From IMG/VR virus record IMGVR_UViG_3300032268_001435, positions 1-54,644 of that record: a DNA stretch of 54,644 bases; one strand, written 5' to 3'. Both the position numbers and the translations under genes were made by a program. The notes beneath the pieces were generated by a model. The model made no database searches and was not told where the DNA came from. It worked only from the letters and a program-made list of their open reading frames with translations. Each line of letters begins with the position of its first letter. Position 1 is the stretch's first letter. Below are positions 17,503 through 31,677 of the stretch, piece after piece. This DNA is from a virus. Taxonomy: Duplodnaviria; Caudoviricetes.

Positions 17503-17574
17503 AAGTTCACAGTGGACGTGCAATCCCTGGGCGACTGTGGTATTCTTATACCATCAACGGACACCAAGGAGAAG

Positions 17575-17883
17575 ATGATGACGGAATTCGCTCCCCGCCC
17601 GGTCAACGTGAATGGTATGAGTCTCACTGCGTACGTCGATGGCGTCACCATGGCTTCTGTCGTCGCGCGGTTCGGTGAGGGTCTGATGATCGGGTACGAA
17701 GACGATGAGAAGGGCTATGACGGACGGGAGGTCGGGTTCGTCCACCTTCCCACTGGCCTCGAGTTCTACGTCTACGCACGGTGGGATGCTGTCCGAGTGG
17801 GCTGCCGCCAGGATGAGAGGACGGATGCTGTGAGCCTCTCCGAGGAACTCTCCCGGTACCTCCGACATGCTGCGACTAACTGA
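17575..17883 (+). CDS. hypothetical protein
   Basis: Promoter at 17518, AAGGAG SD. Confidence 0.75.
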   Translation: MMTEFAPRPVNVNGMSLTAYVDGVTMASVVARFGEGLMIGYEDDEKGYDGREVGFVHLPTGLEFYVYARWDAVRVGCRQDERTDAVSLSEELSRYLRHAATN

Positions 17884-17948
17884 GAAAAAGTTCTCCGTCC
17901 CGTGCAACACTTGAGCTGCTGTGGTATCCTTATCAAGTAGGAGGCAAC

Positions 17949-18713
17949 ATGCGGAAGTCAGCCCAGCAGCGAATCTCGGACACGGAGGCAGCCATCTCCC
18001 AGTGGGAGGCGGCAGGCCTCACCTCGGACCGTCGCCTCCACTTCATGCGCGACGCACTGACCCGCATCCGCACGGCGAAGGGCCTCTCGACCGCCCAGCG
18101 CGAGTGGCTGGACACCCTCTGCGCCGAGGGACCTCCCGCCCCGAAGGGTGACCCGGCCCTCCTCACCCGGATGTCGGCTGCACTGCCCCTCCTGGACGCA
18201 CGCGGCAAGGAGGCACTGGAGAGCTTCCGGGGCACGATCAACCGCGGCTACAAGCTCTCTGAGAAGCAGGAGGCCTTCCTGGTCCGGCTCCTCGAGGGGG
18301 CCGAGCGGATCGCCCAAGAGGGCCACTGGCAGCCGAGCCCTGAACTCCGTGCCAAGGCGGACTTCGCCTGGTCGATCCTGATGGGACGCGGCAGCTCGTG
18401 GAAGGGCACCCACCCTGGCACGATGAAGGCTTGCGAGCGCTACGATGCTTGGCGTAAGGAACCCCAGGTCCACCACATTGACGAGTGGGTGGTCACCAAG
18501 ATGCTCGAGTCCTGCGCTCCTGCGATGCGGGAGTTCGTGGAGCCTAAGTTCGAGGAGGGCGAGATGGTGGTCATCATTACCTACGGAACGCAAATGGGAT
18601 TCGGCGTCGTCTGCTCGCGCCCGGTCGGCCTGGATGGCAAGGTTGCCTATGAGGTCCTCCTGGGCGGCAAGCCGGTCGCCTGTCCGACGGACAACATCAA
18701 GAGGATGAAGTGA
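17949..18713 (+). CDS. hypothetical protein with duplicated LSxxQ helical motif and SH3-like C-terminus
   Basis: KGLSTAQREWL / YKLSEKQEAFL; FEEGEMVVI; GGAGG SD. Confidence 0.8.
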   Translation: MRKSAQQRISDTEAAISQWEAAGLTSDRRLHFMRDALTRIRTAKGLSTAQREWLDTLCAEGPPAPKGDPALLTRMSAALPLLDARGKEALESFRGTINRGYKLSEKQEAFLVRLLEGAERIAQEGHWQPSPELRAKADFAWSILMGRGSSWKGTHPGTMKACERYDAWRKEPQVHHIDEWVVTKMLESCAPAMREFVEPKFEEGEMVVIITYGTQMGFGVVCSRPVGLDGKVAYEVLLGGKPVACPTDNIKRMK

Positions 18714-19087
18714 TGAGCGGATTCAAGAAGGGTGACCTGCTGAGGGTCGTTATGGGCTGTCAGCCGCCCGCGTCCACGGTGCCCCGGGGTGTCCGTGTCC
18801 TCACGACCGCTGAGCGAGAGCGTCTCGCGGCCGACCCATACTATCAGGGTCTCGGCGAGGACGGTGAGACCCGCCTCATTCCAAGGTATCGGAACGATAG
18901 GATAGAACTTGGTAAGAACGTCATTGTGATCCGCGCGCGTGCGAAGGCGCCGCGTGAGCTCGGCTGGGGCAAGTGGGCGAACGGTCACGTGCTGGTGCTG
19001 GATCCGAGCACAGGCAACGAGCTGTACATCAAGAGAAATTTTCTGGAGGCACTGGATGCGCGAAAGGAAGGGGTGGTGACGAAGTGA
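18710..19087 (+). CDS. SH3-like hypothetical protein
   Basis: FKKGDLLRV; coupled start. Confidence 0.7.
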   Translation: MMSGFKKGDLLRVVMGCQPPASTVPRGVRVLTTAERERLAADPYYQGLGEDGETRLIPRYRNDRIELGKNVIVIRARAKAPRELGWGKWANGHVLVLDPSTGNELYIKRNFLEALDARKEGVVTK

Positions 19088-19392
19088 AGGGAATGATCGA
19101 AGGAAAGCATTACAGGGTTCTCAACCCAAAGCGGGCGGACGGCGATCTCCGCATCCCAGGCGTCATGGCGATCGCCTGGACGGACGGCCTCATCGGCAGT
19201 GAGGTGACCTGCGTGCGCACCCGTCCATCCCGAGCTGCACAGCTGGGTGAGGTGGGATTCCGTGAGTTCACTTTTGTCATCAGCTTCGACGGTTACCCGC
19301 ACGCGTTCAGCGTGATGGGCGCGACAGACGATGAGATCGAGCAGCGCCTGCGTGAGCAGTTCGAGGTCCTCGAGGCCGCCGACGGCGCCTGA
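19084..19392 (+). CDS. hypothetical protein
   Basis: GTGA overlap. Confidence 0.65.
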   Translation: MKGMIEGKHYRVLNPKRADGDLRIPGVMAIAWTDGLIGSEVTCVRTRPSRAAQLGEVGFREFTFVISFDGYPHAFSVMGATDDEIEQRLREQFEVLEAADGA

Positions 19393-19465
19393 GAATATTG
19401 TGACATCCCGTGCAACCATGCTAGGCCTGTGGTAATCTATAAGGACGAAGGAGACAGGGAAGAAG

Positions 19466-19837
19466 ATGCGAATGAGCAACAACACTGCAGCGAATCTGGA
19501 CAAGAACGATGTCGTCCATTACCTCATTCAGGACGTGTTCACCGAGGAGTTCCTGGTGGCACACGAGGACGACGAGCTCGGTGGAGACCAGTGGGCACAG
19601 CTCAACGTCGACGCAGAGGACATCGGAAGCGCTTCTTACCTCGAGGAGGAGGTCGACCCCGGCGCTCTGTTCTCGTCTCCCGGTGAGGCACTCGAGGTCG
19701 CCAAGGTCCTCATGGAGGTCCTCAAGGAGCGATTCCCGGGCGAGGAATTCGAACTCCAGATCGTGAAGGCGCGGACTGTGACGACCTCCTCCATCGAGAC
19801 CGAGGAGGTCGACTCCCTCTCGTTCCGACTCCCCTGA
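19466..19837 (+). CDS. highly acidic protein; possible +1 frameshift extension to 19994
   Basis: Own promoter at 19410; D/E-rich; ends CCC TGA C with an open +1 frame. Confidence 0.75.
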   Translation: MRMSNNTAANLDKNDVVHYLIQDVFTEEFLVAHEDDELGGDQWAQLNVDAEDIGSASYLEEEVDPGALFSSPGEALEVAKVLMEVLKERFPGEEFELQIVKARTVTTSSIETEEVDSLSFRLP

Positions 19838-20070
19838 CGACGATTCGGACGAGGACGAGGACGAGGACGAGTGCTTCAGCGACGTGTGCGACGACTCCTG
19901 CGCGGACGGCAACGCTCTGAACGACGACGAGGTCGACAGCGAGCCCCCGCGACGCGAGCGCTCGAAGAAGCCCTCCTCCAAGAAGCGTCGCTGACACGAC
20001 ACTGCCGGGTCCCGTGAAAAAAGATCGCGGGACCCGTGCAATACCTCCCGGTCTGTGGTATTCTAAGACC

Positions 20071-20316
20071 ATGGAGAACAACGACAAGATGCCTCAAATC
20101 GGTGACCTCGCGCCCCTCTACCTCTGCGGCGACTGGTACGACCACGTCATCATCGAGGTGCACAGCGCGACCCGCATCGTCGTGGCGCAGGGCTCCACGA
20201 TCGACACCGCGTTCGGTCCCAAGGAGATCGTCACGCGTCGCACGAAGTCGGGCCAGTGGGTGGCCCTGGGCAAGACCCGTCAGCAGGCCGGCTACCACTC
20301 GGTCTACGCCCGCTAA
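20071..20316 (+). CDS. leaderless small protein (SH3-like)
   Basis: TATTCT-N6-ATG; PQIGDLAPL. Confidence 0.75.
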   Translation: MENNDKMPQIGDLAPLYLCGDWYDHVIIEVHSATRIVVAQGSTIDTAFGPKEIVTRRTKSGQWVALGKTRQQAGYHSVYAR

Positions 20317-20416
20317 AAAAAAGTGAACCACGCTGTGCAAGTTCCCGGCGGCCGTGGTATCCTAATCAAGTAACGGACAACGAACCAACGATCATCGGAC
20401 TGAAAGGGACAAGACA

Positions 20417-20740
20417 ATGACGAAGCGCAACTCGACCTACACCCTCTCCTCGAAGCCCTGCGACATCGAGTACCGCATGAAGCGTGCGGTCGGCCTCGCC
20501 GAGCGGCTCGAGGCGTGCCTCCGCTCCATCGACCCGGCGGTCTTCCCGGAGGGGACGCTCGCGGCGCTCACGGAGCAGGCGTCGGCCCTCGTGGCAGCAA
20601 CGTCGGGCACTCGGACTGGTGCGCCCACCAAGCGCGTCCACACCCGCCGCAAGGGCGTGGAGGCCCAGCCTGTCGTGGAGACAACCCCGTCGGAGACCCA
20701 GGAGGTCACCTTCGTCGAGGAGGACCTCGCGGCGGAGTGA
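20417..20740 (+). CDS. paralog family member 1 (PxDIxxR..SIDP)
   Basis: Similar to 24644 and 27566. Confidence 0.75.
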   Translation: MTKRNSTYTLSSKPCDIEYRMKRAVGLAERLEACLRSIDPAVFPEGTLAALTEQASALVAATSGTRTGAPTKRVHTRRKGVEAQPVVETTPSETQEVTFVEEDLAAE

Positions 20741-20748
20741 GGTGGACC

Positions 20749-20979
20749 ATGGAAGGAGTCGCACTGGGATCGATCCGAACTTTTGTCAGGGACACCTATC
20801 TCTACAGACAGGACGCCGACGGATCGGTCCCGGTCCGTGTCGCCGACCTTGAGATCCTGGCGAGGAAGGGCGATCCTGTCCTCGTAGTGGGAGATTTCGG
20901 AGTCTACGTCGACTTTCTCTTCAAGGGCGACTTGTTCACCTGCAGGTCAACGGTCCTGCGGAATGCCGAGGAGGCCTGA
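20749..20979 (+). CDS. small hypothetical protein
   Basis: GAGGT SD. Confidence 0.6.
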   Translation: MEGVALGSIRTFVRDTYLYRQDADGSVPVRVADLEILARKGDPVLVVGDFGVYVDFLFKGDLFTCRSTVLRNAEEA

Positions 20980-20980
20980 G

Positions 20981-21394
20981 ATGGGTTCTAACTACTGGGG
21001 CACCGTCACCCACTTCAGGCTGCCCGTCCAGGCGATCCGGGAGGTGGAGGAGCTCGTCCGCAAGCAGCAACGGATTGCTGCGATCAAGATCATCCGCACC
21101 CACACCGGCTGTGGCCTCGCCGAGGCGAAGGCTGCTGTCGAGCGGATCGATGGCCGTGAGCCCAACGGTCCCAAGCTCCTCCCGTTCCTAGAGCTCAAGT
21201 CCATCGTGATCACCACCGGCGAGGGCGACGTGACCGTGGACCTGGAGGGCCTGCAGCTGATGGGCCTCATGCAGCTCGAGAAGCTGGGCCTGCAGGAGTG
21301 CCGTAGGATCCTGGACCTCGTCGCTGCGATCGAGGCGTGGCGGGACCAGGGACTCACAGCGGACAACAAGGCTTCTAAGTCGTATCAGGAGTAA
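20981..21394 (+). CDS. protein with ribosomal bL12 (L7/L12) C-terminal-like domain
   Basis: RIAAIKIIRTHTGCGLAEAKAAVE resembles the bL12 motif KxxVIKxVRxxTGLGLKEAKxxVE. Confidence 0.8.
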   Translation: MGSNYWGTVTHFRLPVQAIREVEELVRKQQRIAAIKIIRTHTGCGLAEAKAAVERIDGREPNGPKLLPFLELKSIVITTGEGDVTVDLEGLQLMGLMQLEKLGLQECRRILDLVAAIEAWRDQGLTADNKASKSYQE

Positions 21395-21400
21395 TACACC

Positions 21401-21529
21401 GTGGAAATCATCTGGATCATCTTCCTGCTGTGCACGATCGTGGCACTTCTCCCGGCAGCTGGGTTCATCATCGCGATCCTCATCTTCGGCAAGATCGTCG
21501 AGTGGCTCTTCGGTGGCGGAAGCAAGTAA
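21401..21529 (+). CDS. 42-aa membrane peptide
   Basis: AGGAG SD, GTG start, long hydrophobic stretch. Confidence 0.6.
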   Translation: MEIIWIIFLLCTIVALLPAAGFIIAILIFGKIVEWLFGGGSK

Positions 21530-21580
21530 AAAAGTTGAGGATCCCGTGCAACCACCCAGACGTTGTGGTATTCTAAGACC

Positions 21581-21808
21581 ATGGAGATCAACAACGAAAC
21601 GCTGAAGGCGCACTACATCCTCTACATCCCCGCCGCACGGACCTACGACGGCCGGTCGCTGTACGCGGTCTTCGGTGAGACCGGGCGTCGACTCGCTGAG
21701 TACGGTGATCTACCCCGATTCCTCAGGGTCAATGACGTGGGTGAGTGGACGGGCCACAGCACGAAGTACATCGATAACCCAGCCACCTCCCAGGGACGGA
21801 TGGTCTGA
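21581..21808 (+). CDS. leaderless small protein
   Basis: TATTCT-AAGACC-ATG. Confidence 0.75.
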   Translation: MEINNETLKAHYILYIPAARTYDGRSLYAVFGETGRRLAEYGDLPRFLRVNDVGEWTGHSTKYIDNPATSQGRMV

Positions 21809-21856
21809 CTCCCGTGCAATGGTCGAGCCTACTGTGGTACAGTGAGGGGCTCCCAT

Positions 21857-21952
21857 TAGCGTGAGAAATAGTGTCACAATTAGTGTGAGAAATAGTGTCA
21901 CAATTAGTGTGAGAAATAGTGTGAGAAATAGTGTGAGAAATAGTGCGACGCA
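21857..21952 (+). repeat. 12-bp tandem repeat array B (TAGTGTGAGAAA / TAGTGTCACAAT)
   Basis: 7 clean units plus 1 degenerate unit between promoters 21814 and 21955. Confidence 0.92.
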
Positions 21953-22029
21953 ACGTGCAACGCACTGGTAGCTGTGGTATCCTTATCAAGTAACGGACAA
22001 CGAACCAACACTCGAAGGAAGACCAACTC

Positions 22030-22779
22030 ATGAAGCTCAACGTCCGCAACGACTCCATCGACTTCGGCACCAACATCCTCACGGTCGAGGTTCCCAAGGC
22101 GCTCCGGAACAAGGTGAAGTCGGGCATCGAGTACGTGGACGGCGCACTCGGCGGCGAGGGGTTCACGCCCAGCCAGGTCGTCCTCTTCACCGGCACGCCC
22201 GGCGCGGGCAAGACCACCATGACCCTCACGATGGCTGACAGGCTCACGAAGGGCGGAGCGGTCGTCGTGTTCAACACCGCCGAGGAAAGCCTCTTCCAGG
22301 TGAAGCTCATCGCGGAGCGCCTCTGCCTCAAGTCCGGCTTCGCGGTCGGCCAGGAGACCCACGTCCCCACGCTCCTCCAGAAGTGCGACGAGCTCCGGGC
22401 GAAGAACCCCGGCAAGCCCTTCTTCCTCATCGTCGACTCGCTCCAGTGCATGGACGACGGTCACTACAACGACGGACAGACGAACTCGCAGTCGCCTGTG
22501 CGCGCGCTCGGACTCATCACCGACTGGTGCAAGTCCAACTACTCCAATGCGGTCGTCATCGGCCAGGTCACGAAGGACGGCAAGATGGCCGGCAGCCAGA
22601 AGCTCAAGCACATGGTCGACGCCATGATGGAGCTGAGCATCGAGGAGAAGGACGAGGACCTCCGAGGCTGCCGGGTCCTCCAGACGGTGAAGAACCGCTT
22701 CGGTGGCTGCGGCCACACCTTCTACCTCGCCATGGAGCCCAAGGGCTTCAAGGTGGTGGCCAAGGTCTCGGCCTCCTGA
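22030..22779 (+). CDS. radA: RadA/Sms-like ATPase domain (no zinc finger, no Lon-like domain)
   Basis: GTPGAGKT, IVDSLQ, GQVTKDGKMAG..LKHMVD and KNRFG signature. Confidence 0.85.
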   Translation: MKLNVRNDSIDFGTNILTVEVPKALRNKVKSGIEYVDGALGGEGFTPSQVVLFTGTPGAGKTTMTLTMADRLTKGGAVVVFNTAEESLFQVKLIAERLCLKSGFAVGQETHVPTLLQKCDELRAKNPGKPFFLIVDSLQCMDDGHYNDGQTNSQSPVRALGLITDWCKSNYSNAVVIGQVTKDGKMAGSQKLKHMVDAMMELSIEEKDEDLRGCRVLQTVKNRFGGCGHTFYLAMEPKGFKVVAKVSAS

Positions 22780-22801
22780 GGCTGCAGCACGGCGCTCCAG
22801 G

Positions 22802-22827
22802 GCGGCCACCCCGTGAGGGGTGGCCGC
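22802..22827 (+). terminator. 11-bp GC hairpin with GNRA loop
   Basis: GCGGCCACCCC-GTGA-GGGGTGGCCGC after the radA-like gene; no U-tract. Confidence 0.55.
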
Positions 22828-22846
22828 GTCACCGTTCCACCAACAC

Positions 22847-22876
22847 AGGATAGGCACGCACGCGGCGGGCTTGCAC
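22847..22876 (-). promoter_or_regulatory. reverse-strand copy of the early promoter
   Basis: GTGCAA-N18-TATCCT on the minus strand, back-to-back with promoter 22910. Confidence 0.6.
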
Positions 22877-22944
22877 GCACGGCGGGCAAAAACTTTTTTT
22901 GTGGTTCCCGTGCACCCACCGCGCGCCTGTGGTATTCTAACACC

Positions 22945-23190
22945 ATGGACGCCAACACCTACTATACCAAGAAGCACGCCCTCTGCCTCGAGCTCGCCAA
23001 CGCGATCGGGTCCGCCTTCCCCGCCTTCCTCCGCCTTCAGGAGCACGAGCTCAAGTTCCACGGGGTCGAGGACAACCAGGACCCGGATGTCCGGCTCATC
23101 GGCATGGAGCTGCTCAACCTCATCGTGAACGCGGACGGGCTCTCCAACGCCGTCGAGCCGCTCGCCCAGGCAGCAGCCCAGTCTCGGTGA
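22945..23190 (+). CDS. leaderless small protein
   Basis: TATTCT-AACACC-ATG. Confidence 0.75.
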   Translation: MDANTYYTKKHALCLELANAIGSAFPAFLRLQEHELKFHGVEDNQDPDVRLIGMELLNLIVNADGLSNAVEPLAQAAAQSR

Positions 23191-23242
23191 AAAAGTTTGG
23201 GGGACCCGTGCAAGCGGGGCGCAGCTGAGGTACAAAGGGACC

Positions 23243-23473
23243 ATGAAGAACATCAAGATCGAGTTCAACACCCGCAGCTACGTCTTCTCCCACGGCCGCG
23301 AGCCCCGCGGCTACGGCAGCTGGGCCTTCAACTGGGGCACGGGGACGCAGTTCGCGCCCACGGGGACGTACGCGGAGGCGAAGCGGTGGGCTGCGGAGAC
23401 TGCCCGGGCGAGCTTCGCCCACCTGCCGCTCCACACCTGCCGTCCCGGCGTCGTGATCGAAGTGTGCTCGTGA
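23243..23473 (+). CDS. leaderless small protein
   Basis: TACAAA-GGGACC-ATG; HGREPRGYGSWAF. Confidence 0.8.
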   Translation: MKNIKIEFNTRSYVFSHGREPRGYGSWAFNWGTGTQFAPTGTYAEAKRWAAETARASFAHLPLHTCRPGVVIEVCS

Positions 23474-23510
23474 TCGTGCAATTCTGGCGCACCTGAGGTA
23501 AGGTAACACC

Positions 23511-23681
23511 ATGAAGACCTTCATCATCCACTGGCACACGGTTTCCCAGGGTCAGAACCTCCGCGGCGGCTATAGCGTCGTCGTCGAGCGGGACAAGCGC
23601 GCGGCACGCCGTGCAATCCGCTCCCAGATGCGCGTCAGCCGGGGCGAGAGCCTCCGCATCGACCGGGTCGATGCCCGCTGA
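23511..23681 (+). CDS. leaderless 56-aa basic protein (not in ORF track)
   Basis: TAAGGT-AACACC-ATG; MKTFIIHWH...; stop fused to the next A-tract. Confidence 0.75.
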   Translation: MKTFIIHWHTVSQGQNLRGGYSVVVERDKRAARRAIRSQMRVSRGESLRIDRVDAR

Positions 23682-23733
23682 AAAAGTTCGCGGGTCCCGT
23701 GCAATCCACACCCACCTGAGGTACAAGAAGAAC

Positions 23734-24018
23734 ATGAACAACAACATCGAGATCGTTCGCAGCGCGCTCAACACCGTCTTCGGCAACCGGGTCGGCCGGC
23801 AGCAGATCGAGGATGCCACGTTCACGGGCCGCGAGGACCCGGGCGGCTGGGCCCCGCGAGCGCAGGTCGTCATCCACACCGAGCGCGGCATCCCGGCCCT
23901 CCGGTACGACAGCCAGGCAATCGTGGCGGCCTGGGACCGCGTGAACGACGTCCTCGCGGAGCACGATCTCTTCTGCGAGCCCATCAACGGTGCGATCGTG
24001 GCTGTCTACAACGCCTGA
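23734..24018 (+). CDS. leaderless small protein
   Basis: TACAAG-AAGAAC-ATG. Confidence 0.8.
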   Translation: MNNNIEIVRSALNTVFGNRVGRQQIEDATFTGREDPGGWAPRAQVVIHTERGIPALRYDSQAIVAAWDRVNDVLAEHDLFCEPINGAIVAVYNA

Positions 24019-24071
24019 AAAAAGTTCTGAGTCCCGTGCAATCGTCCCGCGGGTGGGGTATAAAGGAGATC

Positions 24072-24257
24072 ATGGAATACAAGGACATCCGAACCGGTCA
24101 GCGCGTCGTCCTCCCAGGCGGTCTCTCAGGTGAGGTGGTGGAGGTCGATCCCCGCCGCTTGGGGACTGGCGATCCCGTGAGAGTGCGCATTCACCTGCCC
24201 ATCACGGGCACACACGCTCTCTGGGTGGAGCCCAGTCAGCTCACTCCCGGGAGCTGA
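24072..24257 (+). CDS. small SH3/KOW-like protein
   Basis: TATAAA-N7-ATG; IRTGQRVV..GEVVEV..WVEPSQL. Confidence 0.7.
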   Translation: MEYKDIRTGQRVVLPGGLSGEVVEVDPRRLGTGDPVRVRIHLPITGTHALWVEPSQLTPGS

Positions 24258-24311
24258 GAAAAAAGTTTCGAGTCCCGTGCAACCGACCCCCACCTGAGGT
24301 ACAACAGAGAC

Positions 24312-24590
24312 ATGGACAACAACATCACGCCCACGACCTTCGTCGCCTACGAGTGGTACGACCTCCTCAGCCTCTTCCCGGAGGGTTTCGAGGACCACGC
24401 CCGCGAGCGCATGAACAACAAGGGACCCTCCTACGGCGACGCGGAGGCAACCCTCATCAAGGGCACGCGCGCCGAGCGCATCCTCTACGACGCCTGGGAC
24501 AGCTGGCGCGGCGCTGAGGAACACAGCCGCCGCGAGGTCTTCGCCCGCCTCCCCTCCCTCATCAACGCCCTCGTCGCCCTCGACGGCTGA
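24312..24590 (+). CDS. leaderless small protein
   Basis: TACAAC-AGAGAC-ATG. Confidence 0.8.
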   Translation: MDNNITPTTFVAYEWYDLLSLFPEGFEDHARERMNNKGPSYGDAEATLIKGTRAERILYDAWDSWRGAEEHSRREVFARLPSLINALVALDG

Positions 24591-24643
24591 AAAAGTTTCC
24601 ACCACGTCGTGCAACGGACCCACAGCTGAGGTATATTAGGACC

Positions 24644-24940
24644 ATGAAGAACAACACGCTCCCCCTCGCTACCGCCCCCGTGGACATCACCCGCCGCGCC
24701 CAGCGCGCCCGCCAGCTCATCGCCCAGGCGCAGGAGCTGATGGCCTCGATCGATCCCGCCGCCGTCAGCGCCACCGCAGCCCTCGTCCTCGTCGAGCTGG
24801 GCTCGGTCCTCGAGGTCGCCTCCGTCACCGCCACGGGCTTCATCGACGAGATGCCGCAGAAGCGCTCCTGGAACCGTCGCCCCGCGGCCGAGGCCACCGC
24901 TCAGGCCCAGGGTGAGGAGCCCAGCTTCATCGAGATTTGA
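24644..24940 (+). CDS. leaderless paralog family member 2
   Basis: TATATT-AGGACC-ATG; PVDITRR..SIDP. Confidence 0.8.
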   Translation: MKNNTLPLATAPVDITRRAQRARQLIAQAQELMASIDPAAVSATAALVLVELGSVLEVASVTATGFIDEMPQKRSWNRRPAAEATAQAQGEEPSFIEI

Positions 24941-25012
24941 GGCGCGGGGAGGGGCTGCCAAAAGTGGCCCCTCCCACGTGCAATCCGACCGCAGCTGATG
25001 TAGAGTAGGACC

Positions 25013-25192
25013 ATGAAGAACGCCAAGAAGAACGAAGTCACCTACGACGATCCCCTCATCATCGCGGTCCGCCTCGCGGCGAAGTTCCCCCTCGCCCGCT
25101 GCTGGAACGAGGGGCAGCAAATCTACATTCGCTACGCCACTGGGATGAGCGAGTATCTCACCATCCCCCAGGCGATCAAGCTCCTGGGCTGA
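25013..25192 (+). CDS. leaderless 59-aa protein (not in ORF track)
   Basis: TAGAGT-AGGACC-ATG; MKNAKKNEV... Confidence 0.75.
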   Translation: MKNAKKNEVTYDDPLIIAVRLAAKFPLARCWNEGQQIYIRYATGMSEYLTIPQAIKLLG

Positions 25193-25228
25193 CACGCAAC
25201 ACAAACACAGAAGAGGACACACACAGAA

Positions 25229-25399
25229 ATGCACGACACGTTCATCTGCTACTTGATCTCCTTCGTCACCGGCGCGGTGGTCTTCTGGGTCGTCAGCAGC
25301 CGCATCGATGCTGCACAGCGACGTGAGGCCGACGCAAAGTTGAGCCAGGAGCTCCAGGACGCCCACGATCATATCCGTCGAAGGCGAATGGGAGAATGA
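25229..25399 (+). CDS. 56-aa membrane-anchored peptide
   Basis: GAGGA SD; N-terminal hydrophobic helix. Confidence 0.6.
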   Translation: MHDTFICYLISFVTGAVVFWVVSSRIDAAQRREADAKLSQELQDAHDHIRRRRMGE

Positions 25400-25524
25400 C
25401 TGGGCTCTTCGCCTCTCTCATGATGGCAGGCGGATGCTTCACGATCGGCATCCTCATCCCATTGCTCGTCTTCTTTGTGTGGCTCTGGGTGCACCTCTCT
25501 TCTGATGATAAAAACCGACGTTGA
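25396..25524 (+). CDS. 42-aa membrane peptide
   Basis: ATGA overlap; hydrophobic. Confidence 0.55.
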   Translation: MTGLFASLMMAGGCFTIGILIPLLVFFVWLWVHLSSDDKNRR

Positions 25525-25562
25525 CCCGTGCAATCTGGGCCCACTTGGGGTATATTAGGACC

Positions 25563-25847
25563 ATGAAGACGACCTACTTCCTCGGAGTCAAGGCCCACAA
25601 GGCAGCCCCCACCAAGAAGCACGTCCCGGCGGTCTGGGAGTGCATGCTGGGAACTGTCTACGCTCAGAATGCACAGGGCAACACCCAGTACTTCGACTAC
25701 GAGCACGAGGCAGCCCGGGCCTTCGCGGGCGTGGACCTCGAGGGCGCGGATATCCGGCTTGCACGGGCCAAGCGACGAATGACCGACATCCGACCTGGGC
25801 AGCTGGTCCTCTGGATTCGGCGTCCCGTGCAATCGACGGGCGCCTGA
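25563..25847 (+). CDS. leaderless small protein
   Basis: TATATT-AGGACC-ATG; 3' end overlaps the next promoter. Confidence 0.8.
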   Translation: MKTTYFLGVKAHKAAPTKKHVPAVWECMLGTVYAQNAQGNTQYFDYEHEAARAFAGVDLEGADIRLARAKRRMTDIRPGQLVLWIRRPVQSTGA

Positions 25848-25861
25848 GGTATATTAGGACC

Positions 25862-26020
25862 ATGAAGAACGACAAGCGCAACCGCCGCCGCACCGAGCGG
25901 CTCCTCAGCACCCGCGACACGGGCGGTGAGTTCCTCACGGAGTTCGCGACCGAGGTGGTGATTCCGTGCGGCGTCGCCGCCGTCGGCGCTGTGCTCGGTC
26001 TGCTCACGTTCTTCCTCTGA
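25862..26020 (+). CDS. leaderless 52-aa tail-anchored peptide
   Basis: TATATT-AGGACC-ATG; C-terminal hydrophobic helix. Confidence 0.7.
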   Translation: MKNDKRNRRRTERLLSTRDTGGEFLTEFATEVVIPCGVAAVGAVLGLLTFFL

Positions 26021-26129
26021 GCTCCCTGGAGACCCTCCGCGACACTGGGTCTGCGGAATGGGTTTCCACCCGGTCGCAGGGGCCCGAATCGCTCTGTGTG
26101 TCACAGGGAAGCACGGGCGGGGCTCCCAT

Positions 26130-26213
26130 TAGTGTCACGATTAGCGTGAGAAATAGTGTCACAAATAGCTCGAGAAAAAGTGTCACAAATAGCTCGAGAA
26201 TTAGTGAGAGAAA
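26130..26213 (+). repeat. 12-bp tandem repeat array C
   Basis: 7 in-phase units alternating GTGTCAC and GAGAAA types, just before the -35 at 26227. Confidence 0.88.
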
Positions 26214-26261
26214 GTTCGAGTCACTAGTGCAATTCTGGGAGTCTTGGGGTATATTAGGACC

Positions 26262-26579
26262 ATGAAGAACATCATCCAGCACTTCTCCTCCCTCCAGGAC
26301 CTCGACCTCACCATCGAGAATGACTTCGATGGAAATCGGGACTTCTGGGATTTTGCACGGGAAACCCTCAACACCTCCCTGGAAAACCTCAAGTTCATCG
26401 ACTCAGACACCCTGGAGGATATCACCGGAGAGACTGACCTCCCCTTCATCCCCAACACCACCACCCTCAACTTCAACACCTCCCAGGAAAGTGGGACTTA
26501 CCAACTCGGAACCCTCCTGGGAGTTAACTGTCTCATGACCAACACCTTCGGACTCAACACCTACATCATCTCCAACTGA
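26262..26579 (+). CDS. leaderless acidic T/N/D-rich protein
   Basis: TATATT-AGGACC-ATG. Confidence 0.8.
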   Translation: MKNIIQHFSSLQDLDLTIENDFDGNRDFWDFARETLNTSLENLKFIDSDTLEDITGETDLPFIPNTTTLNFNTSQESGTYQLGTLLGVNCLMTNTFGLNTYIISN

Positions 26580-26645
26580 AAAACTAAAACCCAAAAAGAA
26601 CGGGGCCCCAGTGCAAGCTGGGGCCCTGTGGGCTATACTGGGAAC

Positions 26646-26888
26646 ATGAACACCAACAAGACACGCGTGGCACTCCTCTTCAGCGACGCCACCTTCGGAA
26701 CCCACGAGTACGGGTTCATCACCCGGTGGCCGGGCATGGACCCCGACGACGAGGACGTGCTCTACCAGCGGCACCTGCGGAGCCTGGATGTGGTCGCCCG
26801 GGTGGTCGAGGGCACCGTCAAGGTGATGCACGACGACTGCGACAACCGCGGCGGCGCCTGCACGGACTGCCGCACGACCGCCTGGTGA
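26646..26888 (+). CDS. leaderless small protein with C-terminal Cys cluster
   Basis: TATACT-GGGAAC-ATG; HDDC..CTDC. Confidence 0.75.
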   Translation: MNTNKTRVALLFSDATFGTHEYGFITRWPGMDPDDEDVLYQRHLRSLDVVARVVEGTVKVMHDDCDNRGGACTDCRTTAW

Positions 26889-27101
26889 GTCCTGGGCTCA
26901 GAGCCGGGCAGCTGCTGTGGGGGTGAGCTCAGAGCGCCGCCAGCACTGCCCGGTCGACTGCGCTGTGATAACGCACCCGGGGACGCGTGGGCGGCACGAA
27001 TCAGCCGCGCCGCGGGGACAGCGCAGGGCAGCAGCAGTCGCGGCCGCCTCGGCTCGGATCCGGGATGGCGGTCACGGCCGCCTGCGCGCCCTAGGTTCAC
27101 C

Positions 27102-27131
27102 AGCGTAACACCAGCCGCCCACGTGTTGCAC
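27102..27131 (-). promoter_or_regulatory. reverse-strand copy of the early promoter
   Basis: CCCGTGCAA-N18-TACGCT on the minus strand, back-to-back with promoter 27165. Confidence 0.55.
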
Positions 27132-27199
27132 GGGACAAGCGCACAAAAAAAGTGCAGGGCACGCGTGCAACCCGGACGCAGTTGGGGTAGATTAGGACC

Positions 27200-27511
27200 A
27201 TGAAGAACACCAAGACCTGGACGCGAAGCGACATCGATGCTCTCCTCGTGAGCAACTCCCGTGCAGTGGAGAGGGCAATGGTCGTCCTCTACGACCTCCA
27301 GACCCAGGACGAGAAGGCCGCCCCCGCCGCTCGGCACCTCAACGGCCGCGGCTTCAGCGCGAACGCAGCCCGGAAGGGCACCTACTACGCCCGCTGGGTC
27401 CTCGGAGGTCGGCACCTCACCGGACACCACCTCGACCGGGCGCAGGCGATCGCCCTTCGGCACAGCCGGCAGCTCGTGGAGGCGGCCAACGCCCGTACCG
27501 CGGAGGCCTGA
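27200..27511 (+). CDS. leaderless phage protein
   Basis: TAGATT-AGGACC-ATG; AVERA..LY..QT.DE..NGRGFS. Confidence 0.85.
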   Translation: MKNTKTWTRSDIDALLVSNSRAVERAMVVLYDLQTQDEKAAPAARHLNGRGFSANAARKGTYYARWVLGGRHLTGHHLDRAQAIALRHSRQLVEAANARTAEA

Positions 27512-27565
27512 AAAAAAGTTCGCAGGTCACGTGCAAAACACCCACACCTGAGGTAGATTAGGACC

Positions 27566-28009
27566 ATGAAGAACACCAAGCAGCTCAACGTCACGAAGAC
27601 CCCCATCGACATCAAGCGCCGCCTGGACCTCGCGATCCGGCACCTGACCGAGACGGTGGCCCTCCTCGGCTCCCTCGACCAGACGTCCTTCCCGCCCGGC
27701 TACCTCCACGAGGCGGCCTCCCTCTCGGACCTCGCCCTCGCGTCCGTCCTCACGCTGGACACCGTCCGCCCCCGCAAGAAGACCGAGCGCAGCCCGGTCG
27801 TCGAGGCTCCCGTCACCGGGGACGCCCCCGACCTCGCTGGTCCGACGGAAGGGTTCGACACGAGCTTCGACTTCGGTGCAAATGTCGTCGAGGCAGAGGT
27901 CGAGGCCCAGCCCGAGCCGGCCCCCTCGGTCGAGGAGCTCCGCCGGGTCCGCAAGCGCGAGCGTGACCGGGCGTCGGCCGCCCGCCGCCGCGCGGCCGCG
28001 GCCGCCTAA
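27566..28009 (+). CDS. leaderless paralog family member 3
   Basis: TAGATT-AGGACC-ATG; PIDIKRR..SLDQ. Confidence 0.8.
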   Translation: MKNTKQLNVTKTPIDIKRRLDLAIRHLTETVALLGSLDQTSFPPGYLHEAASLSDLALASVLTLDTVRPRKKTERSPVVEAPVTGDAPDLAGPTEGFDTSFDFGANVVEAEVEAQPEPAPSVEELRRVRKRERDRASAARRRAAAAA

Positions 28010-28092
28010 AAAGTGCTCCGGGCGGTGCAAGCCGCCCGTGCGCGGGGTACATTAAGAGGGTAGGCAACAACAGAACAGCGGAGAAAAAAGGG

Positions 28093-28359
28093 ATGAGCAC
28101 GATCAGCACCACCGAGACCGCAGTCCTTCGAACCCTGAGCGACACTTTTGGCTACGTGGGCGTGGGCGGCCTCACAGAGGACAGGCTCCTCTCGTGCTTC
28201 GAGTACATCGACCGGCCTACCCTCCGGGCGACCCTCTACGCGCTCCTGGACAGGGGACTCGTCGAGGCGGCCGACGCCGACTGGGGCGACACCCAGGGGG
28301 TCAAGACGTGGCGGGCCTCGGCCGCCGGGGGTCGGGCCGTGGGCCACAGGCGGTGGTGA
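28093..28359 (+). CDS. winged-helix DNA-binding protein (putative)
   Basis: ETAVLRTL..LTEDRL..IDRPTLRATLYALLDRGLVE..KTWR. Confidence 0.65.
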   Translation: MSTISTTETAVLRTLSDTFGYVGVGGLTEDRLLSCFEYIDRPTLRATLYALLDRGLVEAADADWGDTQGVKTWRASAAGGRAVGHRRW

Positions 28360-28860
28360 GGCGGGGCCCCCCTGGGGCCCAGCACAGGGGGCCCTGCCAG
28401 GGGGCTCTCAGAGGGGGCCCAAAAAGGGCGCCCTAGAGGGGGGCCCGCGGGGGCCCCCTGCATACTCAGTCCGGGGGCCTGTCGGGGGTGGCCTTAGTCT
28501 ACTCTCCCCCTCTCTCTTCCGGAGAACTTTTTACTTTTTGTTAACTGTTTACTACGACACGCTATTAACAAAAAAGCTGCACCGAGTAAAAAGGTAAGGG
28601 GCCCAATTTTCCCGTCTCTCTTCTCCGGAAATTTTTGAGGCGGTTAGTCACACTGACCTCCGGAAATTTTTGAGGTGGGAGGATGGGGTGAATTGGGGAG
28701 TGTTGGGGTAGATCGGGATGTTGGATCTTCCTAGACCCAGTAGGATGGGGAGGGGCGGTCGTATGATTGGATACATGGGGAGGCCTGTGGGAGTGTCGCT
28801 GCGTGTCACCCAGGGTCACGGACGGGGCACGACGTGGGTGTCGAGGTGGTCTCAAAGAGC
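28360..28860. other. long non-coding region at the right edge of the cassette array
   Basis: Periodic GGGGCCC runs at 28360-28460; 18-bp direct repeat CTCCGGAAATTTTTGAGG at 28623 and 28658; G-tracts at 28672-28760. Confidence 0.6.
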
Positions 28861-28905
28861 CTAAGGAGAATGTACAGATCAACGCTGGTTTTTATATTTC
28901 TCAAC

Positions 28906-29481
28906 ATGGGAAAACACGCAAGCCTTCCTCACCACCTGTATGTTAATGTGAAGAATGAGTTCCTCGGGCCCCGAATGCCGCCTGGAGTCACCTCAGGCCT
29001 GTGGCACGGGGTCTTTGCCCGGATGGGGCAGGTGATCACCTGCCATGTGATCCTCGAGTCCGGGGCCCACTGGTCCGGCTTGCCCCTGCATGCACTGAGC
29101 GTGACTGATGACTTCCACCTCGGGCCCAGGGACCTAATGCCCTGGTTCGCGATGGGCGAGCGCCTCGAGGCCTGGGATGCTGGGTACCTGGAGGGGCTCG
29201 CGGTGTGGGCACGTGCGCCCCTCGACGGGGCGGGCCGACACACCGGGATCGTGCTCGATTGGTCAGACGGCTTCTCTCGCTATCCGCAAGAGCATAAGCC
29301 GCTCTCGCTGCTCGCCCTCGATTCCGGGCAGTTCGCGCTGCTGCCGAACAACCACTTCACTGTCACGGACCCACACTTCACCCGAGATGCTGCCCGTGGG
29401 AACATGCACCTCTACCGGAGGGGAGAGGAAGTTTGGTGGGAGGGGAGTGCGACTCCCTGTGTGACGCCGACCGATGAATGA
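28906..29481 (+). CDS. hypothetical phage protein
   Basis: ATG 7 nt after TATATT; ESGAHWSGLPLHAL and QEHK..GQFALLPNN. Confidence 0.75.
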   Translation: MGKHASLPHHLYVNVKNEFLGPRMPPGVTSGLWHGVFARMGQVITCHVILESGAHWSGLPLHALSVTDDFHLGPRDLMPWFAMGERLEAWDAGYLEGLAVWARAPLDGAGRHTGIVLDWSDGFSRYPQEHKPLSLLALDSGQFALLPNNHFTVTDPHFTRDAARGNMHLYRRGEEVWWEGSATPCVTPTDE

Positions 29482-29690
29482 TGGTCACATGGGTCACCCA
29501 GTGACACACCGAGGGACCGGACGGGCCTGTTTGGGTTACCAGGGGTCCCACGATCGCAGTGTCACCTCGTGTCACCCAGAGGCGGCGGCCAGGGTCCCTA
29601 TCATCTGATTCGACGGACGTCGCCGCGGTCTCCGATCTGGGCGTATACCTATCATCATGGGCCCTTTGACAACCGGGCCGAGGAGATCGA

Positions 29691-30068
29691 ATGACACAGC
29701 CAGAAGTGGGCGCACCAGCCCCCGTCCGCAAGTCCACAGTGTTAGGCCCGGCGCCTGTGAAGCCGCGCGTGCTGACGCACGCGCCCCCAGCCCCACGCGG
29801 CAGAAGGGCGAAACTCCGCGACGCAGCCGCGATGTTCTGCATTCAGGTGGTTGCCTACCTCCTCGCCACACTGAACTTTCGGGTCGTGCAGACCGGCAGC
29901 TACGCGGGCGTCGCAGTCACAGACGCGCTCCTCGCGACATTTGGCTTTCTCGTCGTGCGGCGTGTCGCCCGCTCCGAGGAGGCGTGGCACCTGTGGCTCG
30001 GCTACATGCTGGGCGGTGTGGTGGGAGGCGTCCTGGGGCTCGCCCTCTCCCTTTGGATTGGGACCTGA
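29691..30068 (+). CDS. membrane protein
   Basis: GAGGAG SD; about three hydrophobic helices. Confidence 0.7.
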   Translation: MTQPEVGAPAPVRKSTVLGPAPVKPRVLTHAPPAPRGRRAKLRDAAAMFCIQVVAYLLATLNFRVVQTGSYAGVAVTDALLATFGFLVVRRVARSEEAWHLWLGYMLGGVVGGVLGLALSLWIGT

Positions 30069-30077
30069 TGCACTGCA

Positions 30078-30329
30078 ATGGAGCCCCGTGACCTCACCGG
30101 GCGCCTCGTGCGCCCCCGAATTGAGTCGAAGCTGAGGCTCCGGGTCGACGACGCGCTGCCCGAGTTCGCCACGTTCTGGGCGGGTCGGTCCCACGAGCCT
30201 ATCGCCGTCCCCTGGGACTCTCTTGGGATTGTGCTGGGACCCTCACCCGACGTCCGCTGCTACTGGCACGTCGCGTTCGGGGACACGATCGCGCTCGCCA
30301 AGCGGTCAGACCTCGAGCCCATTGGGTGA
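30078..30329 (+). CDS. SH3-like protein, paralog of 30375
   Basis: GRLVRP..AVPWDSLGIV. Confidence 0.75.
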   Translation: MEPRDLTGRLVRPRIESKLRLRVDDALPEFATFWAGRSHEPIAVPWDSLGIVLGPSPDVRCYWHVAFGDTIALAKRSDLEPIG

Positions 30330-30374
30330 GCTTGATCCGTGCAAATTCTGCGTTGACAGTGTATAATTGATCAT

Positions 30375-30635
30375 ATGGAAGGAAATGACGTGATTGAGAT
30401 CGGCTCCCTCGTGCGTCCTCGTAGGGATCACTACACGAGCATAGGGCAGACGTCTCCCGAGGTCTGCGTGCTGTGGCGGGAGACCCCGCACGAGAGGCCA
30501 TCAGGCCGTGACCTCGTGGCTGTCCCCTGGGACTCCCTCGGGATCGTTGTGGGGATTCGGGGTGGCATTGTGATTGTCAACTTTCCCGTGGGCCTCCTTC
30601 GGGCGACCCGGTCCGGGCTCGAGGTCGCATCGTGA
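30375..30635 (+). CDS. SH3-like protein, paralog of 30078
   Basis: GSLVRP..AVPWDSLGIV; TATAAT-N7-ATG. Confidence 0.75.
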   Translation: MEGNDVIEIGSLVRPRRDHYTSIGQTSPEVCVLWRETPHERPSGRDLVAVPWDSLGIVVGIRGGIVIVNFPVGLLRATRSGLEVAS

Positions 30636-30910
30636 GCCCCGGTGACCTCCTCGTGGTGGATGCCTCCCGAAAGGGCACGCAGTCCGAAGTCTGGCTCGTG
30701 CTCGACGGGTCGGGCTTTTACACCGTCGCCCGGGAGGGCGATCTGCTCCTCCACACGGGCACTCGGCCCGACGGGTCCGACTTCCTTGCCGGGACGGGGC
30801 TCCGCCTGTGGTGCTTCATGCTCCGAGGCCAGCCGTGTCACCTCGCGGATCGCGAGCTCGAGCACGTGCGGAGGTCTCTTCGAATCCTGTCCCGTGCGGA
30901 GGCCGCCTGA
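30632..30910 (+). CDS. SH3-like protein
   Basis: MSPGDLLVV; coupled start. Confidence 0.65.
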   Translation: MSPGDLLVVDASRKGTQSEVWLVLDGSGFYTVAREGDLLLHTGTRPDGSDFLAGTGLRLWCFMLRGQPCHLADRELEHVRRSLRILSRAEAA

Positions 30911-31520: not shown

Positions 31521-31677
31521 AGGGTCGCCTCGGCCCTTACATGTGTCCCTGTGGTCGAGATCGACGAGGGGTCGCAGGGCAATTTGCCCTGCGATGCGAG
31601 TCGAAATCTCGCACAGTCTCTCAGAGAATTTTCTCGCATCGTGTGTATAATTGTCATCTGATTACATGGAGGTCTCA

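Follow-up and report, generated by a model that had tools for sequence, protein, structure and literature searches.

The PeSL elements of T4-like phages, as portrayed in the available text of Arbiol et al. 2010 (PMC2839356) and Comeau et al. 2014 (PMC4122927), are repeated early-type promoters, composed of a -35 element, 17 bp, a -10 element and an AT-rich stretch upstream, which are concentrated in a variable region of small ORFan genes and mark the borders where close relatives differ by insertion, deletion, replacement or displacement. Here we describe a repeated unit with the same properties in a 54,644-nucleotide (nt) fragment of an uncultured freshwater phage (the whole of IMG/VR record IMGVR_UViG_3300032268_001435, rated 14% complete), hereafter the window. 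Within an array of small genes at 20036-28053, most genes have their own copy of this unit, and the start codon usually lies on the predicted transcription start. We consider it likely that these are leaderless early-gene cassettes, each with a sigma70/SigA-type promoter and an mRNA starting at the ATG, which are shuffled by homologous recombination at the units; we read them as a leaderless, stem-loop-less variant of the T4-type PeSL cassettes.

Leaderless transcripts are described in other phages. In the Thermus phage phiYS40, the starts of middle and late leaderless transcripts were mapped experimentally and linked to changes in IF2 and IF3 (Sevostyanova et al. 2007, as reviewed in PMC3594737). 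The window resembles phiYS40 in coming from a large phage with many leaderless mRNAs and a high-GC host lineage that tolerates them (both predicted in our case); however, the leaderless class is middle/late there and a presumed early, promoter-dense ORFan array here, and the part of that report available to us describes no cassette shuffling at promoters. Cluster O mycobacteriophages have predicted leaderless SigA-like promoters (PL1, PR2 and PL2, of the 8-9 predicted per genome; PMC4351075), but in the text at hand these do not form an array of one-gene cassettes, and the phage type, a siphovirus, is unrelated. Many copies of one early promoter motif are also found in the jumbo phages phiKZ (PMC8244752) and AR9 (PMC5312081). 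According to the sections of these two papers considered here, however, the phages encode multisubunit RNA polymerases and use AT-rich, non-sigma70 motifs; no leaderless transcript was detected in phiKZ, and the untranslated regions of AR9 span 26-491 nt. A literature search, with subscription journals largely outside its scope, found no description of a leaderless early array with one promoter per gene.

A repeated promoter unit on one strand of the window

We found 29 promoter-like units in the window by eye and by regular expression, between 4750 and 30375 and all on the + strand (Table 1); the set consists of pattern matches plus sites with a looser -35 or -10 element. Searching for GTGCAA-N12-TGNGGTANNNT with at most one mismatch gave 26 matches, again exclusively on the + strand; in 100 dinucleotide-preserving shuffles the same search averaged 0.05 matches and never exceeded 1. 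A second promoter pattern matched 21 times forward and never in reverse, and a reversed control pattern had no match in either direction. A first-pass annotation had placed an array of one-promoter/one-gene cassettes at 20036-28053. The cassettes are there (20 units, 15 with the ATG 6 nt after the -10 hexamer, one with it 7 nt after, three leadered and one non-coding) and every coordinate given agrees with the sequence, but the extent is larger, the same units occurring from about 4750 to 30375.

From 5' to 3' the unit consists of an A-tract, CCC-GTGCAA, 17 bp and TGNGG-TANNNT. With the A of the ATG numbered +1, TANNNT or a close variant occupies -12 to -7 in all units, and the extended -10 positions T-17, G-16, G-14 and G-13 are found in 15-16 of the 16 units whose ATG follows after 6 nt. 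GTGCAA lies at -35 to -30, with CCC directly before it at -38 to -36; the spacer is 17 bp in 27 of 29 units and 18 bp in two. Further upstream, at about -53 to -46, is the A-tract (AAAAAGTT) followed by GTT or GTG, in which A is the commonest letter (10-13 of the same 16 units). All 16 have C at -1, followed after the ATG by A-rich codons 2-3, often AAG AAC; nine proteins start with MKN (seven) or MKT (two), as annotated. Eight upstream stop codons are fused into the A-tract, also as annotated. The spacer and the stretch between A-tract and CCC vary among units, implying that the copies share functional positions and are not recent duplicates. The unit is arranged like a promoter and always points in the same direction as the genes, which supports its proposed role as an expression signal. 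Its -10 region matches in layout the Corynebacterium glutamicum SigA consensus, given as tgngnTA(c/t)aaTgg in the relevant part of PMC1779776.

We could not find an intrinsic terminator on the + strand between 17 and 31 kb, and an upstream hairpin beyond that of shuffled sequences (z below -2) was present in just 3 of 27 units. The mean minimum free energy of the units (-17.4 kcal/mol) compares with -18.1 kcal/mol for 300 random 63-nt segments of the region. Two other roles for the unit were rejected: that of a stoperator-like site by the fixed 17-bp phasing to the -10, and that of a terminator by the lack of T-tract hairpins. Tandem gene duplication was likewise ruled out as the source of the repeat. 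An all-against-all comparison of array proteins yielded one paralogue family (genes 20417, 24644 and 27566, with 30-34% identity; one leadered, two predicted leaderless), and with no further paralogues in the array the repeat is not a by-product of gene duplication.

Degenerate unit copies in reverse orientation are seen at 27126-27160 and 22871-22900 (- strand), in the array's two longest intergenic stretches. Next to an A/T-tract they keep CCCGTGCAA or GTGCAA intact, but the -10 is poor or out of place; the available text of PMC4122927 describes similar 'degraded half PeSLs' for T4-like phages.

Table 1. Promoter-like units of the window and the genes that follow them. Gap is the number of nt from the end of the -10 hexamer to the ORF-opening ATG; ORFs (open reading frames) at gap 6 are those predicted to be leaderless; lengths are in amino acids (aa).
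Span	Strand	Feature	Gap or leader	Remarks
4750-5013	+	unit, ORF 4786-5013 (75 aa)	gap 6	-35 4750-4755, 18-bp spacer, -10 4774-4779
6292-6488	+	promoter-like unit, possible gene		-35 6292-6297, -10 6315-6320; GTG, not ATG, at 6 nt
6530-7326	+	unit, ORF 6577-7326	12-nt leader with GAGGAAG	-10 6553-6558; usual +1 triplet is ATC
8331-9502	+	unit, AAA_5 (MoxR-like) ATPase 8420-9502	leader of ~60 nt	-10 8354-8359
13088-14531	+	unit, DUF2201_N/VWA protein 13125-14531	gap 8	-10 13111-13116
17518-17883	+	unit, ORF 17575-17883	22-nt leader with AAGGAG	-10 17541-17546
17902-18713	+	unit, ORF 17949-18713	12-nt leader with GGAGG	-10 17925-17930
19410-19837	+	unit, ORF 19466-19837	21-nt leader	-10 19433-19438
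20036-20316	+	unit, ORF 20071-20316 (81 aa)	gap 6	extra cassette here in L027 and run X9
20335-21529	+	unit, four-gene SD-led operon 20417-20740, 20749-20979, 20981-21394, 21401-21529	leadered	-10 20358-20363
21546-21808	+	unit, ORF 21581-21808 (75 aa)	gap 6
21814-21945	+	promoter-like unit without ORF		18-bp spacer, -10 21838-21843; points into tandem repeats 21855-21945
21955-22779	+	unit, KaiC/RecA-fold ATPase 22030-22779	40-nt leader	-10 21978-21983
22910-23190	+	unit (GTGCAC), ORF 22945-23190 (81 aa)	gap 6
23208-23473	+	unit, ORF 23243-23473 (76 aa)	gap 6	absent from L025, L026
23476-23681	+	unit, ORF 23511-23681 (56 aa)	gap 6	absent from L025, L026
23699-24018	+	unit, ORF 23734-24018 (94 aa)	gap 6
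24036-24257	+	unit, ORF 24072-24257 (61 aa)	gap 7
24277-24590	+	unit, ORF 24312-24590 (92 aa)	gap 6	other location in L024
24609-24940	+	unit, ORF 24644-24940 (98 aa)	gap 6	paralogue of 20417, 27566
24978-25524	+	unit, ORF 25013-25192 (59 aa)	gap 6
25229-25399, 25396-25524	+	two small membrane-type ORFs after the 25013 ORF		no promoter of their own
25528-25847	+	unit, ORF 25563-25847 (94 aa)	gap 6	stop codon inside next unit's TGAGG
25827-26020	+	unit, ORF 25862-26020 (52 aa)	gap 6	two extra cassettes here in L026
26130-26579	+	tandem 12/24-nt repeats 26130-26206, unit, ORF 26262-26579 (105 aa)	gap 6	-10 26250-26255
26611-26888	+	unit, ORF 26646-26888 (80 aa)	gap 6
27165-27511	+	unit, ORF 27200-27511 (103 aa)	gap 6	phrog_21015, function unknown
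27531-28009	+	unit, ORF 27566-28009 (147 aa)	gap 6	paralogue of 20417, 24644
28025-28359	+	unit, ORF 28093-28359	33-nt leader	-10 28048-28053
30339-30635	+	unit, ORF 30375-30635 (86 aa)	gap 7	GTGCAA, 17 bp, TATAAT 30362-30367

The start codon lies at a fixed distance from the -10 hexamer

In 16 of the 29 units the ORF-opening ATG begins exactly 6 nt after the -10, at the same 16 genes that had been annotated in this way; gaps of 7 nt (ATG at 24072 and 30375) and 8 nt (13125) were also recovered as described. Eight units have leaders of 12-60 nt and two (-10 at 6315 and 21838) have no clear ORF. With p=1/64, chance would place at least 16 of 29 ATGs at one spacing with a probability of 7e-22; the local ATG frequency of 0.0128 lowers this to 3e-23. 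With the ATG 6-8 nt past the -10, 19 of the 29 units leave no room for a transcribed Shine-Dalgarno (SD) sequence.

The same spacing dominates a pooled set of 253 non-identical units, taken from the window and 95 related loci: the first ORF-opening ATG at 3-12 nt past the -10 lies at gap 6 in 72 units, compared with seven at gap 4, seven at gap 7, two at gap 8, one at gap 9 and six at gap 10. These 72 units have 32 different discriminators and 60 different spacers, which indicates that the 6-nt spacing is kept by selection and not merely copied, and 68 of them have C at -1. That diverged relatives retain this spacing while the sequence in between varies speaks for selection on an mRNA beginning at the ATG.

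Several points weigh against this reading, and they are best considered together with an alternative in which the promoters are real and the mRNAs are not functionally leaderless. Transcription might start a few bases off, or read-through RNA might be translated using TGAGG/AGGA as a weak ribosome-binding site (RBS), the 6-nt gap being copied along. The start at the ATG is deduced from sequence, and no terminators separate the cassettes. Moreover, TGAGG (-17 to -13) and AGGA (-6 to -3) pair with the anti-SD, with a free energy at or below -6 kcal/mol in 11 of the 19 units, so that read-through transcripts might also be translated through them, though spacings of about 12 and 2 nt are poor. The usual distance between SD and start codon is 5-9 nt, and both motifs fall outside it. 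The diversity of discriminators and spacers likewise speaks against a gap that is passively copied; 68 of 72 units combine C at -1 with A at +1, which fits a start-site preference; and relatives of low GC content, with the same promoter, have obvious SD leaders in 98 of 102 units (see below). We therefore regard functionally leadered mRNAs as a rather improbable explanation.

Anti-SD pairing did not cleanly separate gene classes in a comparison for which starts in the AT-rich half of the window were taken straight from the ORF list, and we use only the figures for the units and for genes without one. Five array genes have no unit of their own (20749, 20981, 21401, 25229 and 25396). They show SD-like pairing of -4.8 to -11.8 kcal/mol, at or below -6 in three of the five, as expected if only promoter-proximal genes can dispense with an SD. 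The first-pass annotation had also suggested that leaderless mRNAs could bypass a shut-off of SD-led translation; since eight genes under the same promoter keep leaders, several of them with SD motifs, this idea finds no support here.

The leaderless layout is almost confined to one high-GC clade

Related loci were collected with the KaiC/RecA-fold ATPase (22030-22779), for which viral contigs (up to 284 kb long) yielded 15 relatives and metagenome contigs from marine and freshwater sites 346; the best 80 of these 346 were used. Across the resulting 95 loci (894,683 bp in total), all 293 occurrences of the promoter motif are on the gene strand, with none on the opposite one. Among the 19 loci of at least 58% GC there are 136 units, 78 at gap 6, nine at gap 5, 7 or 8, and 37 leadered. 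The 28 loci of 50-58% GC have 55 units (four at gap 6, none at gap 5, 7 or 8, 41 leadered), and the 48 loci below 50% GC have 102 (one, none and 98, respectively). The layout with the ATG at +1 is thus almost confined to one high-GC freshwater clade. Leaders in the low-GC loci are typically short: their first letter, A or G, keeps the same spacing to the -10, and motifs of the AAGGAAGG type come next. As these relatives combine the same promoter with SD leaders in 98 of 102 units, the loss of the leader in one clade appears as a discrete change.

In a quick maximum-likelihood tree of the ATPase (94 sequences reduced to 75 distinct rows, the row of the window being merged with identical ones; SH-aLRT support without bootstrap), 10 of the 12 rows with at least one leaderless-type unit fall in one branch of 16 rows (SH-aLRT 90), which contains the high-GC freshwater loci. 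Two genes were found in different states with the same N-terminus. The AAA_5 gene, preceded by a leader of ~60 nt in the window, is at gap 6 in locus L037; for the VWA gene the gap is 8 nt in the window and L025 but 6 nt in L033 and L037. The VWA orthologues were found by tblastn on the loci fetched with the ATPase; used itself as a query for related viral loci, the VWA protein gave candidates by pattern, none of which was confirmed.

Host or phage-directed holoenzyme

A scan for the Escherichia coli consensus (at least 4 of 6 positions per hexamer) flagged none of the 29 units, because GTGCAA agrees with TTGACA at just 3 of 6 positions. GTGCAA is kept across relatives of widely different GC content, a conservation that could reflect recognition by a phage-encoded factor. 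In the leading alternative to our reading, the units would be read by a phage-directed holoenzyme, containing either a sigma70-like factor without region 4 or an activator that binds CCCGTGCAA and replaces the -35 contact, in the manner of MotA at T4 middle promoters. The array would then be of the middle class instead of immediate-early, and leaderless starts would still be possible.

In favour of this alternative, the non-consensus CGTGCAA is conserved in relatives from 42% to 68% GC, and PmSLs based on Mot boxes are mentioned for phage nt-1 in the available text of PMC4122927. In addition, the related records G001-G003 encode a sigma70-like protein of 230-260 aa with regions 1.2, 2 and 3, in which only 18 residues match region 4 (in G003 at C1:3026-3718, corresponding to L105:27-719 on the - strand). 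A sigma factor with hardly any region 4 would suit promoters that depend on an extended -10. On the other hand, the -10 is of the housekeeping type, and the codons of the array are host-like and avoid those of the phage tRNAs, as in first-expressed genes (see below). No gene for a sigma factor or activator was found in the window, itself a fragment. The sigma operon of G003 is itself preceded by a look-alike (GTGTAA, 18 bp, TATAAT), although this is a weak argument for such sites being read by the host enzyme. Taking both sides together, we give a phage-directed holoenzyme a minor share of the probability and favour recognition by the primary sigma factor of the host.

Cassettes are gained, lost and reordered at the units

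The 8-kb array stretch is widespread: 39-56% of its sampled 31-mers occur in each of 19 lake and freshwater DNA runs from 12 studies, not counting its probable source. No RNA run was listed for 20036-28053, a result that does not bear on expression. The sequences compared below all come from metagenome contigs. Contigs of four runs (four studies), aligned to 17000-31000, are mostly 90-99% identical to the window and break or join at units. In run X9, 24043 is linked to 24626 with 9 novel letters between, losing two cassettes; 28030 is linked to 23220 with 6 letters between, so that gene 27566 is followed by gene 23243; and 27158 is linked to 25547 across 25 novel letters that include a new CCCGTGCAA.

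The related loci show the same in longer context. L027, 95-98% identical to the window, has an extra cassette before gene 20071 that encodes an 89-aa protein and has the leaderless layout. It is flanked by two units that both contain the identical 27 bp of window 20034-20060, and the window corresponds to the left flank of the first unit joined to the right flank of the second. In L026, two extra cassettes lie between genes 25563 and 25862, and identity switches within 25845-25868, that is, from the -10 to the third codon. In L025 and L026, one SD-led gene replaces genes 23243 and 23511 (in L026 also 22945), with the switch at TGAGGTA. About 30 nt of the leader of the ATPase are common to the leader of the unit with its -10 at 20358; L029 lacks 20315-21892, with the crossover in this shared leader. 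Orthologous cassettes occur in other orders in L024, L033 and L034. Gene order is therefore not fixed, and the clean structural breakpoints between near-identical strains lie inside the repeat, so that the pattern which the first-pass annotation named as refuting its model, a constant order with breaks unrelated to the repeat, is not observed; the crossovers of inserted, deleted, replaced and reordered cassettes lie inside the promoter units. The identical runs shared between units are about 24-30 bp long.

Over six near relatives, 16 of 43 distinct ends of collinear blocks fall inside units, which cover 11% of the range (P=6e-6). This statistic mixes structural breakpoints with BLAST block ends due to divergence, and the case for recombination therefore rests mainly on the inspected events. 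The other 27 ends lie outside units and count against the units as the only site of change: they reflect divergence within genes (mostly in L024), changed copy numbers of tandem repeats in two arrays, the region that holds the tRNA and HNH-endonuclease genes, and one GIY-YIG insertion. The latter is an AT-rich gene for a 241-aa GIY-YIG/NUMOD3 homing endonuclease (L028:994-1719, - strand), inserted between the ATPase and gene 22945 (window 22780 to 22894) in L027, L028 and L029 and absent from the window. The annotated role of the repeat as a recombination substrate thus holds for the clean breakpoints between near-identical strains, but some indels are homing-endonuclease insertions; recombination at promoters is a major source of variation here, not the sole one.

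Metagenome contigs can be chimeric at repeats, and the shuffling might be an assembly artefact that joins co-occurring strains at the promoter repeats. The comparative data are all of this kind, and units are where many of the contigs end; we also do not rely on several further joints with sides of just 27-30 letters. Yet the extra cassettes are real sequence missing from the window, the shared runs are short (assemblers usually finish with k-mers longer than this), and the arrangements recur: that of L027 in an X9 contig at the same coordinates, and that of the window in L025 and in contigs of runs X2, X3 and X11. Cassette order differs in the more distant L024, L033 and L034 as well. We thus consider an artefact very improbable.

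It is equally hard to see the unit as the recognition site of a site-specific system, similar to integrons or mini-circles, that is dedicated to moving the cassettes. Such a system would account for single-gene cassettes bounded by a conserved site in one orientation, and mini-circles of PeSLs are cited for RB49/phi1 in the accessible part of PMC4122927. However, the place of the crossover varies, from the -35/spacer (L027) to the -10 (L025, L026), the stretch from the -10 to codon 3 (L026) and the shared leader (L029). Furthermore, unlike the attC sites of integron cassettes, the units have no consistent inverted repeat (z below -2 in just the 3 of 27 noted above), and no integrase-type gene was found among the 61 window ORFs scanned. 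Homologous recombination is the mechanism that these observations point to, and the chance of a site-specific one seems slight.

Some further variation lies beside the units. Two arrays of 12/24-nt tandem repeats (21855-21945 and 26130-26206; consensus unit ATTAGTGTGAGAAATAGTGTCACA) each stand directly upstream of a promoter unit, and in both the repeats follow GGGGCTCCCATTAG; contigs from the runs of three other lakes have a version of the first array that is shorter by 36 nt. These arrays could be protein-binding iterons or a small RNA. A strain-variable (GGACGA)n repeat at 19847-19871 encodes an acidic run, at which many X2 and X9 contigs end or continue with a different acidic-repeat sequence.

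Codon use separates the array from the AT-rich half

The window has a GC content of 58-69% over most of 3-33 kb and of 35-49% from 36 kb on. The 26 genes served by units have a GC content at third codon positions (GC3) of 0.88, while that of 18 ORFs in the AT-rich half (36000-54644) is 0.40. The window carries 11 tRNA genes, whose products read AGA, AAA, ACA, GAA, CAA, GGA, GCA and TTA. These codons are nearly absent from the array genes and common in the AT-rich half; as shares within their amino acid, AGA rises from 1% in the array to 44% in the AT-rich half, AAA from 0% to 31%, ACA from 4% to 46%, GAA from 9% to 43% and TTA from 0% to 13%. Such a partition fits an array of early genes that would be translated on the tRNA pool of a high-GC host while phage tRNAs are still scarce. 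The 11 phage tRNAs are themselves encoded within the promoter-rich, presumed early region, and no unit is found past 30375. The genome of phiYS40 is also much more AT-rich than that of its presumed host and carries tRNAs.

Islands of lower GC within 3-33 kb coincide with tRNA and endonuclease genes. An endonuclease VII-like ORF (9865-10200) and HNH ORFs (11628-12110, 14591-15211 and perhaps 15594-16238) sit among the tRNA genes and account for these islands. A 1151-aa ORF at 31651-35106 spans the transition from high to low GC (GC3 0.52) and has a weak match to the PilY1 beta-propeller (24.6 bits, below the cut-off of 28.1).

We rejected the possibility that the window is a chimera, since the PrkA and XPD-type helicase genes of the AT-rich half are syntenic with the ATPase in four of five large relatives; the PrkA is 74-76% and the helicase 52-58% identical to the orthologues beside the ATPase locus.

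Array proteins, relatives and clues to the host

All ORFs of the array are on the + strand, with a coding-type GC3 of 0.73-0.93. For 19 of the 20 array proteins scanned, Pfam and PHROGs gave no match to a family of known function, and these scans lend no support to the host-takeover role suggested in the first-pass annotation. PHROGs gave only the phrog_21015 match listed in Table 1, the rest being sub-threshold, and the ESM Atlas held no usable match for 27566-28009. The single above-threshold Pfam match is to the ribosomal L7/L12 C-terminal domain in the 137-aa product of 20981-21394 (27.3 bits against a cut-off of 25.9, residues 29-56), for which a phmmer search of PDB sequences gave nothing. 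Beside leaderless genes, a protein mimicking the L12 factor-binding domain would be interesting, but this is a single weak match.

A nucleotide search of the array against 50,697 phage records gave no match, nor did the exact 40-column pattern of promoter plus ATG match anywhere in IMG/VR. Protein searches against cultured phages with the ATPase, the VWA protein and PrkA returned only distant matches, of at most 33% identity, and thus neither a close cultured relative nor a pointer to the host; the best for PrkA are Thermus phages including phiYS40, whose PrkA-type kinase is about 32% identical to that of the window. PrkA (48921-50855) belongs to a trio with DUF444 (46321-47559) and SpoVR (47556-48878) within 46321-50855, a bacterial yeaH/ycgB/yeaG-type set carried by the phage.

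The window fragment itself has no capsid gene, and three large syntenic relatives have a T4 Gp23-type one (E 1e-64 to 1e-65), these being also the three with the sigma70-like gene; the nearest cultured capsids are 41-48% identical, with those of Flavobacterium phage immuto and Microcystis phage Mel-JY01 at 41-46%. One relative's contig is binned in a metagenome-assembled genome of Acidimicrobiaceae and another in one of Halobacteriovorax. Co-binning is weak evidence, and we name no host from it.

Discussion

We propose that the units work as follows. The primary-sigma (sigma70/SigA-type) holoenzyme of the host would bind each unit, for which CCC-GTGCAA (-38 to -30) would be the -35 element and TGNGG-TANNNT an extended -10, the A-tract AAAAAGTT probably serving as an UP-like element. 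In 16 units (19 when gaps of 7-8 nt are included), the first transcribed letter would be the A of the ATG, which follows a C and stands 7 nt past the -10, giving an mRNA that begins with AUG and could initiate at this 5'-terminal AUG without an SD. If only a 5'-terminal AUG can be used without an SD, each gene needs its own promoter, which would explain the layout of one promoter per gene. Read-through from upstream units probably occurs, with poor translation of the downstream ORFs. The near-identical runs would meanwhile provide homology for recombination between co-infecting relatives, by which a single gene may move along with its own expression signal, and cassettes may be gained, lost, replaced or reordered.

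The T4-like PeSLs to which the first-pass annotation compared the units are the closest described system. The comparison is apt because relatives of the window carry a T4 Gp23-type capsid gene. As far as PeSLs are set out in the accessible parts of the two papers cited at the outset, however, our units differ from them in five ways: they have no consistent upstream stem-loop or terminator; 19 of 29 have no SD, the ATG being at the predicted +1; the -35 is GTGCAA and not TTGACA, TTTACW or TTGYVH; the homology at crossovers reaches the first codons (ATGAAGA); and the context is 60-69% GC. Because the upstream stem-loop and the 3' SD are lacking, we see the units as a variant that works like PeSLs and not as a member of the class.

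More speculatively, the array and the AT-rich half may form a two-tier translation programme that evolved on a move to a high-GC host, possibly an actinobacterium. The first-expressed genes would be leaderless, with host-like codons, and need neither an SD nor phage tRNAs; the rest of the genome, at ~40% GC, would depend on the 11 phage tRNAs; and the unit, together with the start and first codons, would serve as a mobile 'expression plug' for captured ORFs. On this view the AAA_5 and VWA orthologues, which occur with a leader, at gap 8 and at gap 6, would let the passage from SD-led to leaderless initiation be followed inside a single phage family. We put this forward tentatively, as an idea that is possible and somewhat more doubtful than not.

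If the transcription starts map to the ATGs, the phage would be a virus with a mostly leaderless early programme, and gene callers that expect an RBS will misplace starts in such phages. It would also offer a natural series in which SD-led genes become leaderless under the same promoter, with leaders in low-GC relatives, none in this clade, and single orthologues in intermediate states. The split in codon use matched to the phage tRNA set provides a testable link between expression timing, initiation mode and tRNA supply. Finally, the contigs from several lakes give population-level evidence that short regulatory repeats are joints of gene shuffling outside the cultured T4-like phages, and that the homology used in this shuffling can include the start codon and the first codons of the gene that is moved.

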